Shown here in pieces: positions 22,425 to 55,011 of a stretch of 64,000 nt of DNA. The translations under genes and the position numbers were made by a program. The notes below the pieces were generated by a model. That model was not told the DNA's origin and ran no database searches. It saw only the letters and a list, made by a program, of their open reading frames with translations. The number at the start of each line of letters is the position of its first letter. Within the stretch, counting starts at the first letter, position 1. This DNA comes from Mobula hypostoma (taxonomy: Eukaryota): the NCBI RefSeq assembly GCF_963921235.1, contig NC_086097.1:134046001-134110000 (forward strand). The letters run 5' to 3'.

Positions 22425-24400
22425 CACATCCTCTTACTTACCCCTTGAAGAGGACCCACTCCAGACCATCAGAAAACTGTCTCCAACACCAGCACTGACC
22501 TCAGCAATTCTGAAGAACTCCCATCCACTGCCACCAAACTCATAGTTCCCCGACCTCACACTTCTCACTTCTGCCCCAACAAACCTGACTATCCGGGTAG
22601 GCCCATTGTCTTTGCCTGCTCCTGACCCCTGAACACATGTCCTCATACCTTGACTCCATTCTATCCCCCTTGGTTCAGTCCCTTCTCACCTACGTCCATG
22701 ACACTTCTCATGCTCTTGATCTCCTCACTAACTTTCAATTCCCTGGCCCTGACCATCTCATTTTCAACATAGATGTCCGGTCCCTATACACTTCTATCCC
22801 CATCGAGAAGGCCTTAAAGCTGTCTGCTTCTTTCGCAATAAAAGAACCAACCAGTCCTCCTCCTTCATCACACTTTTCCATCTGGCAGAACTGGTCCTAA
22901 CCCTCAACAATTTTTCTTTCAGCTCCTCCCACTTTTTCCAGACTCAAGGGGTCACCATGAGCACCCGCATGGGCCACAGCTTTTCATCAGCTACGTAGAA
23001 CAGTGTCTGTTCCAAGCCTTCCTGGGTAACGCTCCCCAACTCTTCCTCTGCTACATTGACAACTGCATTGGTGCTGCTTCATGCACCCAGTCTGAACTTG
23101 TCAAATTTCATCAACTTTGCCTCCAACTTCTGCTCTGCCCTTAAATTCAATTGGTCAATTTCTAACACCTCCTTCTCCTTTCTGAACCTCTCTGTCTCCA
23201 ACTCGGGAGACAATCTGTTGACCGACATCTTTTATAAACCTACCATTACTACGGCTATCTTGACTATCTCCTCCCACCCTGTCTCCTGTAAATATGCTAT
23301 CAGACATGTCATTCTTCTTCAAAGGGTTCACTTCTTCCACCATTTACGCTGTCCTCACCCACATCTCCTCCATTTCCCAGATATCCATGATCACTCGATC
23401 TTCCAGCTGCCTTAACAGTGATAGTGGTCCTACCATCATATGAGCTTCCACATCCAACGCACCATTCTCCGCAACTTCCACCATCTCCAAAGGGATCCAA
23501 TCACTAAACACATCTTTACCTCCTCACCCCCACCCCCAACTCTATGTTTTCTGTAGGGACCACTCCCTCCAGGATTCCTTTGTCCATTTGTTCCTCTTCA
23601 CTAATCCCCCTTCCAGAACTTATCCCTGCTAAGGGCTAAAGTTTTACAATTGCCCATTCATTTCCTCCCTCATCTCCATACTGGGCCCCAAACATTCCTT
23701 CCGGGTGAGACAACACTTCACCTGTGAATCTGCTGGGGTCGTCTACTGTATCTAGTACTCCTGATGTGGCTCCTCTACATTGGTGAGACCTCCCATAAAT
23801 CGGGGGCCACTTTGTCGAGAACCTTCGCTCCATCAGACACAAGTGGAGCTTCCTGGTGGCCAAACATTTTAATTCCAATTCCCATTCTCATTCCGACATG
23901 TCAGTCCTTGGCCTCCTCTTCTGCACCAATGAAGGCCACTTTCAGGATGGAGGAGCAATGCCTTATATTCTGTCTGGGTAGCCTCCAACCTGACGGCATG
24001 AATATTGATTTCTCCTTCCAGGTAAAAAAAATTCCCTCCCCTTCCCCTCTTCTTCTATCCCCCACTCTGGCATTTTGCCTCTTCTCACCTGCCTATCACT
24101 TCTCTCTCCTCCTTCCCTTTCTACTATGGTCCAATCTCCTCCCCTATCAGATTCCTTCCTCTCTAGCCCTTTACCTTTCCCACCTGCCTGGCTTCACCTA
24201 TGATTTTCTAACTATTCTCCTTTCCCTTCCCCACCTTTTTATTCTGGCATCTTCCCCCTTACTTTCCATTCCTGGTGAAGCATCTCAGCTCAAAACGTCA
24301 ACTGTTTATTCACCTCCATGGATGCTGCCTGACCCGCTGTGAACTCCCAGCATTTTGAGCATGTTGGCTGGGATTTCCAGCATCTGCAGAATTTCTTGTG
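22425..24400 (+). mobile_element. Penelope-like retroelement (RT + GIY-YIG), decayed
   Basis: SYLDSILSPLVQSL..YVHDT, DVRSLYTSIP, QGVTMSTRMG, YIDN (YIDD motif), GVVYCI...LLYIGET (GIY-YIG), pyrimidine-rich tail and terminal hammerhead-like motif at 24267-24304. Confidence 0.9.
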
Positions 24401-26248
24401 TTAATAATAATGATCTGTCCAGAACAACTGCCATTCCAAAAACGTTTTGGAAGCATGACTTTGTTGTTGCTCTACATGAAATTTAATGGAATGGAGTATT
24501 TTCCTGTCTCCCAGTGGAATAATGATTCATATAAGTGTGAAAATCCCATGGACCACACGTCATTCAGAATGAATTGAAATTGTTGTAACAGAGGGTTAAA
24601 TCTCAGACACAAAACATCATCGATTCACCCATAACAGGGGCCCATAAGAGGGCACCCTGTGCTATTTTAGAATTGGGACAACAACATTTAGGGTAACTTT
24701 TCCCCTTCAGTGTTTTTATTAACTAATTTTCTGGAACATGGGGGCCACTGACAAGACCAGCATTTGCTACCCATCACTAATTGCCTTGAATTAAGTGACT
24801 TGGTGGGTCATTTCAAATGGCATTGAAGAGTGAGCCACATAGATGGGTTTGGAAAGTATTTCAGGCAGTGTAACGCTGGCAAGTTCCTCCCCAATCTGAT
24901 TTTTTTTTGTCATAGCTATAAACAGTTAACTTCATGTTAACTCCAAATTATTAACCAAATTTAGCTTCCACGCTTTTTTTTTTGAAGTCAGATTTCTGGA
25001 TTTTTCGTACTGGCCTCTAGGTTATTAGTCCAGTAATTTAACCACTGCCACCACTCTATGATAACAGCTATAAGTCAGCAGTGGAAGGCATTTCCTTGCA
25101 ATTCCTTTCCACATCATAAAAAGGATGCACACATATGATGCCCAGTTCAGTAAGTTGCTGGCATCCCATTCAGAAATGTGAATGATTATGGCCTGGAATA
25201 AGACTCAGTGCTTTCAAAATGCCTTTCTTTAACAAGGCATTGATGCTGGCTGGTCCCACTTACAACTTCATTAGGGGCCAATGCTAGCAAGTGACCATTA
25301 TTCTTTCCAAGACTGGCCTAGCCTCCTTTAAATGAGCAGGTGCCCAGAACTTCAGGGCTCCATGATTTTTTGGCAAAAGTAATCACACTCTGAACTCCCT
25401 AAAATCAATATAGCATGTTCCACAGTTATAAACTCATGGCTTGGATAGCCAAAAATGGAAACTTCAGGAGGAATAATATTCCAGTTGAAGGGGTTAACCC
25501 AGTTAATTTCAGCAACCAAAATTATGAGCGGTTCCAATAACTGAACATTCATGCTGTGGGATTATTGGTGGAGGAATATATTTTGGTCCCAGGACCACTA
25601 GGGCACCCCCTCCTGATCTTCTTCAGAGCAAGAGATTGGAATATTTTGTGTCCACAGTAGAAGACAGACAAGGCTTCAGGGTAACATGTCAATCACACTG
25701 CAGAGTACTAACCTAGCTGCAGTCTGTTTTAAAAATGTATCCAAACTGATCACAGCGAATGCAAACGAGGAACTTCTTGTTTTCACAATGTACCAATTCT
25801 AACAACCTGACATTTGTGAAAGACAAGCTACAACATCAAGGACAAAGCTCCGCATCCTATCACAGCAAAGCTGCCGCAGTATCACAGCTCTCAGGAGGGA
25901 ACAGTCAGGAACCCTTCTTAATCTGCCTACTCTTTCTGGTTGAAACCTCCTTGATTCTCATCAGATTGTCACACTTCTGTTATGTGACTGCATCAGATCA
26001 GTCTGCAGTATAGCTGTTCACTCTCACTGTCCAATAATTCCTGGAATGCTGATATCTTTCTGAGCTGAATGGAAGTTGAACAAATCTATAACATTTTTCC
26101 AGGTTACTTAATAATGTGCAATTACTGTATAAGACAAGAGTTCTTTTTATGAACCAATAAATGTGATAAATGAGTGCATCTAACGCTATTGATTATACAT
26201 GTTTAAAAAACCCCACCTGATTCTGCTTCTTCCCATTTAAATTAATTG

Positions 26249-26499
26249 TGTTGTGTATTTAATATTTAAGTAATATTTGAGTACTCTTGTAAATATATTG
26301 CTTGATTAAGCATTCTTTTTTCCTTAAATAATTCAGTACAAGTTATATAGATATAAATTTGTGAATTACATATGCCATCATGCTACCACATGATATATGT
26401 GTGCCTCACTTAAAGTAAACACAAAGTTAGACCTGCATTTTTGGACTCCTCTGTCTTCCGTTTCAATTAGTTTAATGTTTTGAAGTTACAAAAAAAAAA
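26249..26499 (+). repeat. 5' LTR
   Basis: Begins TGTTGTGTATTTAATATTTAAGTAATATTTGA and ends ...TTTTGAAGTTACAAAA; collinear with 29474-29722. Confidence 0.85.
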
Positions 26500-26748
26500 T
26501 TGCTGACCAGGTATTTTTAAAACAAACCCAAGACAGCTATTGACCTGATGAAGCTCCGTGAGATGTTCATGTTAAAAAAAAATGCAGCGAGAAACAGCGA
26601 GTAAAAAAAAAACACAGCACAGCACATGCATAAACAGTCTTTGGAAGGGAAGAGATGAGTGAGTTTTTAAAATAAAGACAGAAAACAGAAGAATTTATAG
26701 GTTTATAAAGAATAAGTACCGAGTAATAATAATTATGAAAAATCAGAA

Positions 26749-27990
26749 ATGGCTGGCTACATTGGAATGATAGACATGTTTGATTACACATTAGATAACT
26801 GGATTTTTATACTGAGCAAATTCAACAGAATTTTCAAGCAAATAAAATAACCAATGAGAAACATATACCAATTTTGCTGAGAGCATTGGGTTTAAAGGCA
26901 TATAGTTTGCTTCAAATTTTGACTGCTCGGACCAAACCAACAGAAATGAGCTTTGCTGACATTATCAAAGTGATGCAGGAATATTTAGAACCAAAGCCAT
27001 TGTTCATTGCAGAATGCTGTAGGTTTCAAAAGCATAATCAAAAAGAAGAGAAATCCACTTCAGCCTACGTAGCTGAACTGAAGAGATTGTCAGTTTGGTA
27101 ATGGACTTAATGACACACTAAGAGATCGCTTAATTTGTGGAATCTTACAAGATAGCATTCAAAAACGGCTCCTAGCTGAAATACAACATGCATTTAAAAG
27201 AACAGTTGAAATTGCTCTTTCAATGGAAAGTGTAGATAGAGATGCAATTGAGTTGCAATCAGGAATGAAAGTGAGCATAAACAAAACTGCAAAGTCCAAA
27301 CAGAAACCAGCCTGGCTGAACAGATTGTGTTAATGTTGTGGCAAAGTCTCACATACACCAAAAAAATGCATGTTTAAAGGTGAAAATTGCAGAAAATGCA
27401 ACAAAGTAGGACACATACAAAGGATTAATTGGGCAGACAAAAATAAGTGAAGAGAAAATGTGAAGCACAGAAAAGAGAAAAAGTCAAGCTGCAATTTCAA
27501 AACGAGCATTATTCTACATGCTGTTGATGAAAAATCTGATAATGATGAAAGTGACACAGGACTGAGTAACCTTGGGATATACAGTGTGAAAATTAACAAT
27601 ATGGTTTATGCCAGAAGTGAACGACAAATTAATTAAAATGGAATTAGACACTGGTTCAGCTGCTGCAGTCATATCACAAAATGAGTTTGAGAGGCATTTC
27701 AAAGATACTAAACCGAAGTCTGTAGATATCCAATTAAGAACTTATACTGGAGAAAAGATAACTCCTGTGGGAATGACATTCTTAAAAGTAGAATACAATT
27801 TTGGATTTTACCACATACAAGCTAAATTGAGCTTGTGATTAGTAAAAGCAGGAGGACCAGCACTGTGCGGGCATGATTGGCTGAGCCAACTACAACTTGA
27901 TTGGAGATCCATCCATCATTTGCATGCCACATCTCCTACAATAAAGTCAACTGAAAGTGAACTAAGAAAGGTACAAGATGATGCCACAAC
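26749..27990 (+). pseudogene. Gypsy gag-protease remnant (stops and frameshifts)
   Basis: MAGYIG... start; YLEPKPLFIAECCRFQKHNQ...YVAELKRL (gag); CCHC knuckle remnants at ~27330-27430 (CRKCNKVGHIQR); MELDTGSAAAVIS aspartic protease motif; GGPALCGHDWLSQLQLDW. Confidence 0.85.
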
Positions 27991-28039
27991 TGTCTCCATG
28001 CCAAACATCATGAACCGTTGCCCCACAGAGGACAAGCAA

Positions 28040-28573
28040 GTGTTGGTGCCATCCTCTGTGCCTCTGGTTCGAAAGTACATTGGACCAAGGAACGACTATG
28101 CTGCTCAGGGGAACCATGAAAGTGACGAAAGCAGTGATCTGACTACGACAGTGTTTGTAAGGAACATATCTGAGAGACCTCCTGATCTGTTAATCAGGCT
28201 GTTACTTGCAAAATGTGGCTTGGTTTTAAGATGGGAGAGAGTCAAAGGAGTTTCTGGATAGTTGCAAGCATTTGGCTTTTGTGAGTATATAGAACCAGAA
28301 TCTACTCTGCATGCATTTAGGTTATTGCATGAACATCAAGTAGATGCAAAGACCAAAGCCCAGCCGGATGAATGGAAGGCCAAAAAGAAAGGAGTCAACA
28401 GAGATACAAAAATAGAGGATTTATCAGATGATGTGAATGAGGAAACCAAAAGGGGAGACCAGATCATAAGGGGAGCAATAGAAGGATTAATAAGGGAATA
28501 CTCCAGTGAACTAAATGTCCCTTCCCTAGATTAAGATACATGAACTAGAAGAAGCAAAAAAGAATAAGAAGAA
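28040..28573 (+). pseudogene. rbm25: Intronless (transduced) fragment of RNA-binding protein 25, RRM region
   Basis: VLVP...TTTVFVRNISERPPDLLIRLLLAKCGLVLRWERVKGVSG*LQAFGFCEYIEPESTLHAFRLLH...VDAKTKAQPDEWKAKKK...GAIEGLIREYSSELN closely follows RBM25 (TTTVFVGNISEKASDMLIRQLLAKCGLVLSWKRVQGASGKLQAFGFCEYKEPESTLRALRLLH...). In-frame stops at 28259, 28532, 28541 and 28565. Confidence 0.93.
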
Positions 28574-28766
28574 AGTTGGCTACCAGTGTCAGAACCACTT
28601 CCTGCAGTCTCAGAGTCAACTCATACAACCAGCATGGAGGAGGCCCCAGTACCTGAGATTGTTTTCAAAACCACAAGTTTCACCTGCCAGGCAGAGTGAT
28701 CCCCTTTGTCAGAAAAGATGTTATCACACAAGAGTAAGAAGCCCCCCACAGTGATTAAATCTTTAG
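28574..28766 (+). pseudogene. C-terminal tail of the Gypsy pol polyprotein
   Basis: P/E/T/S-rich SEPLPAVSESTHTTSMEEAPVPEIV, then (frameshifted) KRCYHTRVRSPPQ*LNL*, resembling the RRYPxRxRxPPxRL terminus of Gypsy pol. Confidence 0.65.
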
Positions 28767-28834
28767 GCCTGAATGGGACAATTTAAACTTTACTATGCTG
28801 GGGATGCCTTTATGGTAGTTATATTATATAGTAT

Positions 28835-29399
28835 AGGAAAGGTACGTCGCATCCGGAGTTTCTTCGGTTAGTGGACGATTTCCCTCCATGCCTCTCTGAC
28901 GTGTGTGGTGAGTGGCCAAGTGGTTAGGGTGTTGGACTAACGATCTGAAGGTCGTGGGTTTGAGCCTTGGCCGTGGCAGTGTGTGTCTCCTTGAGCGAGG
29001 CACTTAACCACACAATGCTCCAGTCTACCCAGCTGAGAATGGGTACCAGCAAAAATGCTGGGGGTTAACCTCATGATAGACTGGCATCCTATCCGGGGGT
29101 GGGGGGGAGGAGTCTCATACTCTCAGTCGCTTTACACCACGGAAACCGGCATAAGCACCGGCCTGATGAGCCACAAGGTTCGTGACAGACTTTAATTAAT
29201 CTCTCTGACGTAGTGGGGAATCACGTACGAGGCAAGTTACAAAAGTGGTTTGCCATTGCCTTCTGCCGGGTGAGTTTCCAAAGAGATCACCAGCTCGTAA
29301 CCCAGCACGGATGGAAAGCATGCAGGGGAGCCAGCTAGATTCGAACTCGGGACCTTTCATCCCGAGGTCCAACGCTGATGCCACTACGCCACCAGCCGG
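28835..29399 (-). mobile_element. tRNA-derived SINE with RTE-like segment, split by a second SINE
   Basis: Minus strand: A box TGGCGTAGTGG, B box GAGTTCGAATC, then GAAGGCAATGGCAAACCACT (motif typical of RTE/BovB-related SINEs). Confidence 0.75.
28903..29200 (+). mobile_element. tRNA-derived SINE (Meta/CORE-like body) with 11-bp TSD
   Basis: A box TGGCCAAGTGG, B box GGTTTGAGCC, body CCTTGAGCGAGGCACTTAACC...GATAGACTGGCATCCTATCC. Flanked by CTCTCTGACGT at 28892-28902 and 29201-29211. Confidence 0.85.
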
Positions 29400-29473
29400 G
29401 TCATTATACTATACTACTTATATATTTGAGATGCATTCTATTGAGTTAGAGTTCATTGCTAAGCAGGGAGAAG

Positions 29474-29722
29474 TATTGTGTAGTTAATATTTAAGTAATA
29501 TTTGACTAATCTTGAAAATATATTGTTTGATTAAGCATTTTTGTTTGTTTAAGTAATTCATTACAATTTATATGTATAAATACGTGAATTGCATATGTCA
29601 TCGCGCTACTGCATGATACAAGCCTGTTTCGTCTGAAGTAAACACGAAGTTGGACCCGCATTCTCGGACTCCTGGGTCTTCCTTTGAATTAGTCTAATGT
29701 TTTGAAGTTACAAAACATTACA
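29474..29722 (+). repeat. 3' LTR
   Basis: Begins TATTGTGTAGTTAATATTTAAGTAATATTTGA directly after the PPT and ends GAAGTTACAAAACATTACA. Confidence 0.85.
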
Positions 29723-30844
29723 CATCCGTCATTACAACTCTCTGCAGTTAATGTGAATAAGCAGAAAGAGTTTTACTGAAGCCTCTATGAAGTTGTATGT
29801 TTCTATCAAAAAGTTTCCTTTCAAGTCTCTCAGTAGCTGAGAGCCTCTCACACACTTCTAACCAAGCTCCAAGAGTGGTCGCTGCTGTAACATAGGAAAA
29901 CCAGGCATCGTGTTCAATGATTCTTGAATGTTTGCAGTAAAATTGCATTCTTCCTACTGATAGTCTCAAGACAAAACTCGAGGGTTTGTCCCAGCACTGT
30001 CCTGAGTTACGTATCTGCACCCACTCCAAACGCCAACCTCTCCTACCCTCAAGAAACATCTCAGTTTCCTCAGGCTCCATGCTGACCCCAATGCACATGC
30101 AAGTATTGTTGCTATCCATGTTACTGTGACCAGAAGAAAATGGGAGCAGGACTGGACCACTCAGCCCCTCAAATCTGCCCTGCCATTCAGTGTGACCACG
30201 GCTGATCTGCTGTACGCCTCCATTCCTCTTCTGTGCCAGTTCCCCGATCCTTCAAAAGTCCACTGACATCCTCTTTAAATACCCCCAATAACTTGGCTTC
30301 TGAAATCCTTTACAATAGAGAACTGATCAATGGTTTGTGCATAGCAAGCTCCAAAAACCAATGACAGGTCAATCAGTTTGCACAGTTAGGCTTATAGAAA
30401 GATAAATATCAGTCAGAGCATCTGGGCAATTTCAGATGCTCTCGGGAACCCCAATCAACCACTCAACTCTCAACCAAGTTGTGCATTTAAGCCTTGAGAC
30501 TAACTATCCAAGCCCAATACACCAACTTTTCAAACAAAATGTTGTTCAAACTTCAACTATTCACACTGAGATGAGGTCTCAACAGCACAGGAAACAGACG
30601 GACATATTACATCCTCATAGCTTCAGAAAGATGAAAGAACAGTAAAGCACACCCCGAGAAAAAAAGCTAATTGATAGATCCACAGATTAAACTGAAACAG
30701 AGTGCACACAATTTGTATCGTGACATTGTGGTTAAATTACCGGACTTGTGTCCAGTGGTCCAGAGATGCAAATTCAAATCCCACCACAGTAGCTGGGGAA
30801 TTTATAACCCACTAATTAAGTCAATCTGGAATTTAAAAAAAATC

Positions 30845-50529: not shown

Positions 50530-53160
50530 TAGTCATGGAGTCATCAAACACTACAACATCTAAACAGGCCTATTGGCCCATCTAGTCCATGCCAAAACAT
50601 TAATCTACCTATTCCCATCGACTTGCACCAGATCATAGCACGCTGTACCCATCCCATCCATCTACCTATCCAAATTTCTCTTAAGTGTTGAAATTGAACC
50701 CGCATCCACCAGTTCTACTGGCAGCTCATTCCACACTCTCACCACCCTCTGAGTGAAGAAATTCTCCCTCATGTTCCCCTTAAGCACTTCACCTTTCACC
50801 CTTAGCCTATGACCTGTAGTTCTAGTCTTACCCAACCTCAGTGCAAAAAGCCTGCTTACATTTACCCTCTCTATAACCCTCATTATTTTGCATACCTATC
50901 AAATCTCCCCTTGTTCTTCTACACGCTATAGAATAATGTCCTAATCTATTCAAGTCCTCAAGTCCTCAAGTCCTGGCAACATGCTTGTAAATTTTCTCTG
51001 CACTCTTTCAGTCTTATTGACATCTATCCTGCAAGTAGGTGATGAAAACTGCACACAGTGCTTCACTACGGCCTCACCAACATCTTATACAACTTCAACA
51101 AAACATCGCGACTGTACTCAGAACTTTGATTTGTGAAGGCCAATGTGCCAAAAGCTCTCTTTACAACCCTATCCAAATGTGACACCACTTTCAAGGATTT
51201 TTGGATCTGTATTCCCAGATCCCTCTGTTTTACCACTCTCCTCAGTGCCCTGCCACTCACATGTAAGTCCTACCCTGGTTAGTCCTGTCAAAGTGCAACA
51301 CCTCACACTTGTCTGCATTAAATTCCATCTTCCATTATTCAGTCATCTTTCCAGCTGATCCAGATCCCACTGCAAGCTTTGATAGTCTTCCTCACTATCC
51401 ACTACACTCCCAATCTTGGTATCATCCACAAATTTGCTGATCCAGTTTACCACATTATCATCTAGATCAGTCAGATCCCTGCAGATCCCTGTATCATCCA
51501 GATCATCCAGATCCCTGTGGCACCCCACTAGTCACAGGCCTCCAGTCAAAGATGCAACCATCTCCTGCAAAGCCAATGTCTGATCCATGGTGACACAGTA
51601 GTGTAGTGGTTAGGACAACACTTTACAGTACAGGCAACCCTGGTTCAATTAGCATCGCTGCCTGTAAAGGAGTTTGTACGTTCTCCCCGTGTCCACGTGG
51701 GTTTCCTCCAGAGGCTCTGATTTCCTGCTGCAGTCCAAAGGTGTATGGTCACTGTAAATTATCCCATGATTAGGCTAGGATTAAATTAGGGGATTGGTGG
51801 GCAGTGCAGCTCAAAGGGCCAGGAGGGCATATTCCACGCTGTGTCTCAATCAATCAATCAATAAATAAATAGCTAACTAACTTGAATGCCACGGACTGAA
51901 CCTTCCTGACCAACCTCCCATACGAACACCCCAGGCTCACCGGCCTACAATTTCCTGACTTATTCTTAAACAACAGCACAGCATTAGCTATCCTCCAATC
52001 CTCCAGCACCTCATCTGTGACTAAGGACGTTTTGAATATCTCTGTGTGGGTCCCTCCAATTTCTGCACTAGCCTCCCACAGTGTCCGAGGGAACACTTTG
52101 TCAGGCCCTGGGGTTTTTGTCCACCTCAAGGCAGCAAACATCTCCTCCTCTGTAATCTGTATATGGTCTATTACCTCTCTATTGCTTTGCCTCATTTTTA
52201 TATACTCTGTGTCTGTCTTCCAAGTAAATACAGATGCCAAAATTTCATTTAAGATCTTCCCCATTTTTTTCACCTCCATGCATAGATGACCATTCTGATC
52301 TTCTAGACAGCCCACTTTATTCCTTGCTATGCTTTTGCAGTTAATATATCTGTCAAAGCCTCTGAGATTCTCCTTCACCTTGTCTGCTAGAGTAACCTCA
52401 TGCCTTCTTTTGCACCTCCTGATTTCCTTCCTAAGTGTTCTCTTACATTTCTCGCACTCCTCAAGTATTTAATTTGTTCTTGCTTGCTTATACCTGCTGT
52501 GCGCCTCCTTCCTTTTCTTAACCAGAGCCTCAATATCTCTAAAAAGCCAAGGTTCCCTAAACCTGTTATCCTTGTCTTTTATTCTGACAGGAAAATACAA
52601 ACTCTGTACTCTCATAATTTCACTTTTGAAGGCCTCCCACTTACCAAGTACACCTTTGCCAGAAAACAACCTGTCCCAATCCACACTTTCCAGATCCTTT
52701 CTGATACCATCAAAATTGGCTTTTCTCCAATTTAGAATCTCAATGCGAGGACCAGACCTATCCTCCATAATTATCTTGAAACTGATAGCATTATGATCAC
52801 TTGAATTAAGATGTTTCCCTACACAAACTTCTATCACCGGCCCAGTCTCATTCCCAAATAGAAGATCTAATATCATACACTCTCTCAATGGGACCTCTAT
52901 GTACTGATTTAGGAAACTTTCCTGAGCACATTTGACTAACTCTTTCCCATCCAGTCCTTTTACAGTGTGGAAGTCTCAGTCAATGCATGATAAAATCACC
53001 TACTATAGCAACTTTATGTTTCTTGCAATAGTCTGCAAATCTCTTTACAAATTTGCTTCTCTAAATCCCATGGACTGTTGGGTGGTCTGTAATATAGCCC
53101 CATTAATGTGGACGTCCCTTTCGTATTCAATTCCATTCATATAGGCTTAGTAGACGAGCT
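50530..53160 (-). mobile_element. CR1 LINE ORF2 (endonuclease to 3' UTR), decayed
   Basis: ILDLLFGNETGPV..SSDHNAISF; KTPGPDKVFPRTLWE; WISKFVDDTKIG; RDLGIQI; ENFFTQRVVRVWNELP. Confidence 0.9.
51588..51870 (+). mobile_element. V-SINE inserted in CR1
   Basis: tRNA-like head GTAGTGTAGTGGTTAG...GGTTCAATT; tail (TCAA)n(TAAA)n. Confidence 0.8.
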
Positions 53161-54606
53161 CTAACAAAGTTTCCTTTTACTGCCTCTCCACTGTATCTAA
53201 GTTAATTAAACCCTTCATTAATTAAGGAGGCCAGGTGTAGTATTGCATATCATTGTAGGAAGACTTCCCTTCTTTTTCTTGCTTGAAGTGGGAAATGACA
53301 GGGAGCCATGACCGCGGATTGCTTTAGAATTACAAATTTATGTTTTAATCATCGTTTTGGATAGTGAACAAGTTCTGTAATTTGCTATTTGCATTGAGTA
53401 TTCACTTCAGATCAGAGTATTGATGATTAGAAATTAGAACTGCACAGGGTGGAGTACATTTCAAGAGAATGGCAAGAAGCACATTCCCACAAGGGTATGT
53501 TGCATGTCAGTAGTTACACAGAGGATTTCAAAAGTGCTGTTAACTAATTCAAAGCTGAATATCATTCCACCATTGTAAACTGGAGACTTTATTCCTTTTT
53601 TAACAAACTTCCAAAATGAACCTGGGCACCATCGCTGTTGCAGTGGGACAGTGCACTGTTCAACTCTCTCCATTACTTCCTCCCTCCACTCTTTACAGAA
53701 GTGACCCTCATCGGCTAGCAATCCAGAAAGGCTTTAATTTAGTCATTTTCACTTCCCCTTACAGATCCTGCCATGGAATCCCAACCCTTTCCTAACTCAG
53801 TTACAGGGTAGGTAGAGGCCGTTCTGCCATTTTGGTCAGTGCTGGCTGCTGGTGGAGCAGTCCCATCAGTATGCTTGCCTCTTGCCCAACGTTAACAAAT
53901 CTCACGCCATATGTCGGTGACAATAAACCTGATTCTGAAAACCCTGTCGTTCAAGGCTCCAAAATTCAGTGCAGATATCCGTTTTTTTTTTAGATTCCCT
54001 CCTGGGACCTCCTTACCCCTTTTTCTTTCCAAAGGTGCAAATTTATTGTCATATACACCAGGGTGCAATGAAGATCCTTGCTTGCAGGTTCACAGAGAAA
54101 ACATGGTAATAATAAGTACAACAAAGGGTGCAAAAACATTGGAATGGTGCAAAGTGCAGGCATGTAATGTGAGGTAATGCAAAAAGAAAAGCTAAACTGA
54201 CAATAACAGAAGAGGAAGAACTAAAGGGTCGAGACTGTGACACCACCGGGAAGGCGATGGGAAAGAGGTCTCCTGTCTCAGCATCTCATTAAATAGCTTG
54301 TAAAAACTTATTTGATAACATTCCATTGATAATCTCATAAATACCAGCATTCTTAAGGGGGAGGAGGAGCAGCCAGAGATCATTTTACCTATTGGCAGCA
54401 ACATAGGTAGGAAAAGGGATCCTGAGAGCGAATAGAAGGAACTATGCAGGAAGCTGAAAAGCAGGACCTCAAGTGCGATGATCTCTGGAATGCTGCCTGT
54501 GCCGTGTGCCAGTGAGAGTAAGATTAGGATGAAATGGTAGTTGAATGTGTGTCTGATGAATTGGTGCAAGGGGCAGGGTTTCAGCTTTGTGGACCATTGC
54601 AGTTTG

Positions 54607-55011
54607 ATTGAAACATATAAGATTGATTGAAACATATAAGATTATTAAGGGACTGGACACATTGGAGGCAGGAAGCATGTTCCCTCTGATGGGTGAGTCC
54701 AGAACCAGAGGCCACAGTTTAAGAATAAGGGGTTGGCCACTTAGAACGGAGTTGAGGAAAAACTTTTTCACCCAGAGAGTGGTGGATATGCGGAATGCTC
54801 TGCCCCAGAAGGCTGTGGAGGCCAAGTCTCTGGATGTTTTCAAGAAAGAGATGGATAGAGCTCTTAAAGATAGCGTAATCAGAGGTTATGGGGATAAGGC
54901 AGGAACTGGATACTGATTGTGGATAATTAGCCATGATCACAGTGAATGGCGGTGCTGGCTCGAAGGGCCGAATGGCCTGCACCTGCACCTGCACCTATTG
55001 TCTATTGTCTA
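54607..55011 (+). mobile_element. Young CR1 3' fragment nested in CR1 ORF1
   Basis: Intact LIETYKIIKGLDTLEAGSMFPLMGESRTRGHSLRIRG...FFTQRVV and (CTATTGT)n tail. Confidence 0.88.

Follow-up and report, generated by a model that had tools for sequence, protein, structure and literature searches.

A decayed gypsy-type LTR element of Mobula hypostoma with a spliced RBM25 fragment in place of its replication enzymes

In the window analysed here, a stretch of 64,000 nucleotides from Mobula hypostoma (NC_086097.1, positions 134,046,001 to 134,110,000; coordinates below count from its first letter), a retroelement protease, the RRM of the host protein RBM25 and the tail of a pol gene follow one another on the forward strand. 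A sequence-only reading of the locus took them for the remains of one ancestral polyprotein from which the host RRM could have been released. The locus thus raises the question of whether its active source translated a single protein of this kind and whether the captured domain worked for the element or travelled as a passenger.

The locus from 26249 to 29722 is a decayed gypsy-type LTR element and a single dead copy of a family (Table 1). Its LTRs are 82% identical (26249-26499 against 29473-29715, 246 columns; K2P 0.196). Loose contig ends pile up at 26248/26249, the outer border of the 5' LTR, and they are also found at 29722, the border of the 3' LTR, in all three genomic-size runs. The Metaviridae-type order is present, with the LTR pair, a primer site recognised by position only, gag followed by protease and a polypurine tract. 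Reverse transcriptase (RT), RNase H and integrase, which in the relative P0269 follow the protease (PR-RT-RH-IN), are missing, and an intron-free RBM25 fragment lies in their place. No target-site duplication was recognisable at this locus, which is about 10% decayed per side: the five bases flanking the element (26244-26248 and 29723-29727) match poorly, and the LTRs might stem from a recombined or partly deleted locus. The nested repeats downstream of the tail comprise a piece of ~309 nt with an 11-letter direct repeat, sitting inside another repeat; the joint 28891-29201 shares 11 letters, the depth there rises to 119,000 in run X1, and some contigs skip it cleanly. We take the ~309 nt piece to be SINE-like; it had no match in Rfam, where the search gave one chance match. 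Elsewhere in the window, decayed ORF pieces at 22700-24000, 51854-52975 (minus strand) and 54192-54885 resemble, by eye, remnants of non-LTR retroelements.

Table 1. Parts of the element, in window coordinates.
Feature	Position	Strand	Remarks
5' LTR	26249-26499	+	starts with TG; A-rich end
Primer-binding-site-like stretch, decayed	26500-26512	+	directly 3' of the 5' LTR; putative, from position only
gag with zinc-knuckle region	26749-27597	+	three pieces; frame changes and stops
Aspartic protease	27590-27949	+	DTG at 27647-27655; stop at 27836
Stub of protease-RT linker / RT start	27950-27982	+	aligns with P0213 up to residue 416
Spliced RBM25 fragment	27983-28573	+	shark-type extra segment, RRM, following helix, lysine-rich exon end; four stops
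RRM	28151-28348	+	PF00076, E 5e-4, just under the cut-off
C-terminal pol tail	28574-28766	+	RBM25 frame to ~28660, another frame beyond
Nested later repeat insertions	28836-29400 (outer borders approximate)	+	between tail and polypurine tract
Polypurine tract	29461-29473	+	purine run immediately 5' of the 3' LTR
3' LTR	29474-29722	+	ends with CA

The nearest relatives of the element part are Ty3/gypsy proteins named 'K02A2.6-like' (P0213 of Metynnis, P0250 of Labeo, P0229 of Xenopus), with which the hybrid shares a single gag-pol frame, CCHC and a DTG protease; it differs from them in that RBM25 replaces RT, RNase H and integrase. These fish and frog relatives presumably represent the Mag-like lineage. 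By tblastn, gag aligns with the fish gypsy-type protein P0213 in three pieces at 40-53% identity (E 1e-98), and it has a weak PNMA match. The protease match to PF13650 (E 1e-4) stays under the cut-off. Four extra residues near 27799 in the protease are private to this locus, where the depth is at the single-copy level (4.7, 29.5 and 18.4). The stub of the protease-RT linker recurs in the Hypanus protein P0201, and the end motif of the tail, resembling RxYxxRxRxPPxxLxL, matches the ends of P0213, P0229 and P0269. If each stop is translated as X, the stretch 27590-28696 yields a protease, an RRM and a low-complexity tail. In the P0213 model from Metynnis hypsauchen, most of pol is missing as well, and the pol tail follows gag-protease and an RT stub; this could reflect an internal deletion of the element or an error in the gene model.

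The origin of the cargo is firm, and the host derivation of the RRM proposed in the sequence-only reading stands. Overall, the fragment is 66-69% identical to shark RBM25, with 66% over 211 columns for P0210 (E 1.6e-81) and 136/198 identical residues for Heptranchias P0123. It begins at about 27983, and not at 27920, where one of the ORFs starts. The fragment runs unbroken over the exon borders marked by the intron-read-through proteins P0364, P0367 and P0361 and by exon L001, hence it came from spliced mRNA. One part of the fragment (27992-28039) has no counterpart in the aligned bony-fish, frog and mammal proteins and was seen only in shark proteins here. In shark RBM25 (P0123, P0209, P0210), this extra segment measures ~16 residues and exists in two forms four residues apart; the shorter one is the form captured by the element. 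The fragment includes the whole RRM span, and it excludes the RE/RD region and the PWI domain, domain names used for RBM25 in the consulted part of a preprint (bioRxiv 10.64898/2026.10.05.756609). In the RRM of this copy, nine residues are missing at 28339/28340; three contig pieces have further letters beyond the point at 28333-28341 where their match ends, which hints at a gap private to the copy. In the PDB only generic RRMs were matched, and no full-length shark or ray RBM25 occurred among the listed protein matches.

Both ends of the cargo lie close to recognisable landmarks. The 5' junction is found ~three codons upstream of the shark-type extra segment, and at the other end the likeness to RBM25 stops within ~two codons of an exon end (L001, with AG...GT borders; also P0209 and P0361). 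At 27983-27994, the element relative P0213 and the host protein P0210 both align, and this likeness at the protein level points to a putative in-phase microhomology at the 5' switch point.

For the question of copies, contigs from the runs X1, X5 and X9, which represent three organisms, were placed on the region 25700-30200 (55,696, 54,606 and 48,674 contigs). The depth of the flanks is 6-50; at five of six tabulated places within 28235-28650 it is ~400-3,900 times the flank value and at the sixth, 28538, 57-106 times, whereby summed contig depth is inflated by overlapping contigs and does not equal copy number. We read these values as a large family of the RBM25 hybrid in the three organisms, with hundreds to a few thousand copies. 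The depth at 28290 in the RRM (21,600) is about that of the tail (21,815), which crudely suggests that a large share of the family consists of the hybrid. Run X15, which may be RNA, covers the flanks as well and hence carries no information on expression. Among 32 pieces listed (with 167,057 further ones), at least seven contigs of other copies bridge the 5' junction. Three of these seven are gapless, at 17-19% difference from the copy, and one has a net change of -9, so that 4/7 stay in frame; the other three lose the frame at an unspecified place within the span (net -5, -11 and -13). The Hypanus sabinus protein P0201 (XP_059848386.1) crosses the same junction in frame with 50/79 identical residues, and the switch point is common to P0201 and the seven listed contigs. 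A lone processed pseudogene that landed in the element is ruled out by the family-wide depth and the shared junction, and an assembly chimera by the presence of the junction in three organisms and in Hypanus.

The 3' junction is covered more thinly: no listed piece bridges it with 31 letters on each side, record 23 reaches ~30 letters there with a net change of -1, and 240-257 contigs per genomic run cease matching at 28587. In several runs, internal skips recur at the joints 27780-27874, 27950-28053, 28664-28746 and 26493-26738; they suggest deletion subfamilies, one of them without the 5' junction. An intact fusion was absent among the protein matches (120 listed of 227 with 337-2000 aa, 150 listed of 2,721, and a set of 17), and among 89 protein matches the junction was crossed by P0201 only. 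The P0201 model, named GTF2IRD2-like, consists of ~80 residues of a family copy followed by unrelated transposase-like sequence, and is likely a mixed annotation or a nested insertion. Viral contigs gave no locus, and 2 of 64 parts of the metagenome contigs gave one, an ordinary rbm25 exon.

Within the copy, the ORFs at 27608 (ATG), 27920 (TTG) and 28262 (TTG) do share one frame, which contains all five stops given for it (27836, 28259, 28532, 28541 and 28565) and runs on into SEPLPAVSESTHTTSMEEAPVPEIV. Downstream of the cargo, 28586-28648 has a tail-like composition for which the RBM25 frame scores best of the three (12.5 against 2.4 and -0.1; the model was built from only two relatives). The single frame proposed for protease, RRM and pol tail holds up to ~28660, but the end of the tail with its motif lies in another frame. 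Gag, also assigned to the fusion, is not part of the shared frame in this copy: it falls into three pieces, and its frame changes three times from 26749 to 27597. The absence of frameshifts from 1,070 nt, given four in 2,020 nt, has P=0.049 for a span that was picked after the fact. For one copy taken alone, the chance of 1 in 9 for two in-frame junctions, as calculated in the sequence-only reading, does not reach significance; the 5' junction rises above chance because other copies share it. Stop 28259 is missing from 95-98% and stop 28541 from 90-96% of the depth; of the five stops, these two are covered by the 40 listed of 936 rows. Since the frame at the 5' junction is kept in other copies and these two stops are private, the source element likely had a single open gag-protease-RBM25-tail frame. 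The ancestral polyprotein is in this way backed at the 5' junction by other copies, whereas the frame at the 3' junction comes from a single copy.

The copy itself is dead, as had been stated: it has four frame changes, and its five stops in 357 codons compare with 3.5 (0-7) in a simulation of neutral decay at d=0.098. Selection on the copy after insertion was considered and is ruled out by this neutral stop count. At RBM25 sites that 17 or all of 18 hosts have in common, 26/109 differ in the copy, compared with 20 (13-28) for simulated post-insertion decay alone. At columns where two sharks agree, 43/169 differ, slightly more than the simulated 32 (22-42; P=0.024), the host reference being shark and not ray. 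The damage to the RRM fits neutral decay from a host-like source. When the copy is compared with P0201, both have the same non-host residue in 4 of 53 shark-agreed columns, next to 13 and 14 private differences. By eye, the four shared columns are all upstream of the RRM, and the 15 RRM columns covered by P0201 contain no shared change. With so few shared non-host residues, the source protein appears to have been near that of the host, which fits either a short interval from capture to spread or purifying selection.

In single-copy contigs of the flanks, which extend over the first ~28 letters of the 5' LTR, the difference is 0.9-1.9% for organism B and 4.5-7.8% for organism C. An internal piece is 98% identical in organism B, and contigs of both organisms cover the private stretch at 27799. 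Because these flank-LTR contigs and the private stretch are found in B and C, the insertion is likely older than the divergence of the three organisms. An absolute date was discarded: with the rate of 7e-10 per generation given for the epaulette shark in PMC10587355, it would come to an implausible 1.4e8 generations, and the missing target-site duplication weakens dating by the LTRs.

On balance, we favour an origin by two template switches followed by non-autonomous spread; within a likely single Gag-protease-RRM-tail protein, the RRM was probably carried along as a passenger. An rbm25 mRNA would have been co-packaged in a particle of the element, and RT would have switched onto it just after the protease, where A-x-x-V of the element and A-T-T-V of the host share codon phase. 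The switch back may have occurred towards the end of pol, within purine-rich sequence close to the exon end. The product would then have been spread by the RT and integrase of a sibling, since it retained both LTRs, the primer site, the polypurine tract and gag-protease. A single protein from Gag and protease through the RRM to the tail was likely translated from the source, and the open frame may have been tolerated or mildly favoured because it left the translation of Gag-protease undisturbed.

A rival account, in line with the sequence-only reading, is that of a working RRM, which would have been cut from Gag-protease or stayed tethered to it, bound the RNA of the element, aided packaging, export or the avoidance of splicing, and so driven the burst. 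We consider this unlikely, albeit with several observations on its side: the in-frame 5' junction is common to copies and species, the fragment spans the RRM completely and drops the other two domains, the element's own protease-RT linker, which likely held a cleavage site, is retained, no change is shared in the RRM columns covered by P0201, and the depths of RRM and tail are nearly equal. However, deletion derivatives that are non-autonomous and carry no cargo are often more numerous than their parents. Among 366 matched proteins, not one aligns with protease and RBM25 fragment alike, which counts only slightly against a working RRM, as repeats are rarely annotated. In-frame retrocopies are, moreover, common when young: in 14/17 Drosophila cases the longest ORF keeps the frame of the parental protein (PMC5131818). 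That a vertebrate LTR retrotransposon swapped its replication enzymes for a protease-released splicing-factor RRM, handled its own RNA with it and outnumbered its autonomous parent in rays is unlikely.

Two further readings concern the 3' junction. It could have been made by splicing, if an rbm25 exon was joined in this way to the tail of an element lying in the following intron and a single later switch supplied the 5' half. The closeness of both junctions to their landmarks, the exon end and the extra segment, speaks for this; the junction region of the copy, however, is purine-rich with no pyrimidine tract in view, and by a rough estimate (~1 in 10) a chance landing near an exon border is not rare, so we regard a splice-made junction as improbable. 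Alternatively, the family keeps the frame at the 5' junction only and the 3' frame arose by accident in this copy, the source protein being a Gag-protease-RRM that ended in a foreign frame. This would agree with the thin coverage of the 3' junction, the many contigs stopping at 28587, the net -1 of record 23 and the renewed frame shift of the copy near 28660. Against it, the tail-like frame continues unbroken from that of RBM25 in the copy, and we hold it to be very improbable.

Acutely transforming retroviruses are helper-dependent, with pol replaced by an in-frame, intron-free host coding fragment (gag-onc). The RBM25 hybrid resembles them in this replacement and differs in being a germline retrotransposon without env, whose cargo is known from sequence alone. 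LTR-mediated gene capture in animals, including its mechanism and secondary spread, has already been described (Tan et al. 2016, PMC5131818), and the locus shows the features of an LTR retrocopy, i.e. an intron-free host mRNA fragment with gag-protease before it, pol tail, polypurine tract and LTR after it, and no poly(A). As in the cases covered by the consulted part of that article, a partial spliced host mRNA lies in the same sense between two halves of one LTR element, lacks poly(A) and may be retroposed secondarily. In contrast to those cases, which occupy few insertion sites, the RBM25 hybrid has hundreds of copies or more in three organisms and its cargo continues the frame of the element's own protease. 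Maize Bs1, as outlined in the same part (PMC5131818), is likewise an LTR element with host exons in a hybrid ORF, and all its copies share their switch points. Bs1, however, combines exons of three donor genes, exists in one to five copies and has a reported function, whereas the RBM25 family has one donor, far more copies and a cargo known from its sequence only. What is new relative to known LTR gene capture is the scale of copies and the in-frame fusion, with a 5' in-frame junction common to copies and Hypanus. No description of an RBM25 hybrid family was found in the literature consulted, where unread supplements and repeat libraries may hold one; the main text of a manta and devil ray preprint has no occurrence of RBM25.

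A family of hundreds to thousands of copies over several species allows a direct test of selection on a captured host domain. If the RRM was kept under selection, the family would parallel, among retrotransposons, the gene transduction of retroviruses. If it was not, the family would be a large case of an ordinary passenger and also a source of false RBM25-like gene models in rays, of which P0201 is one.
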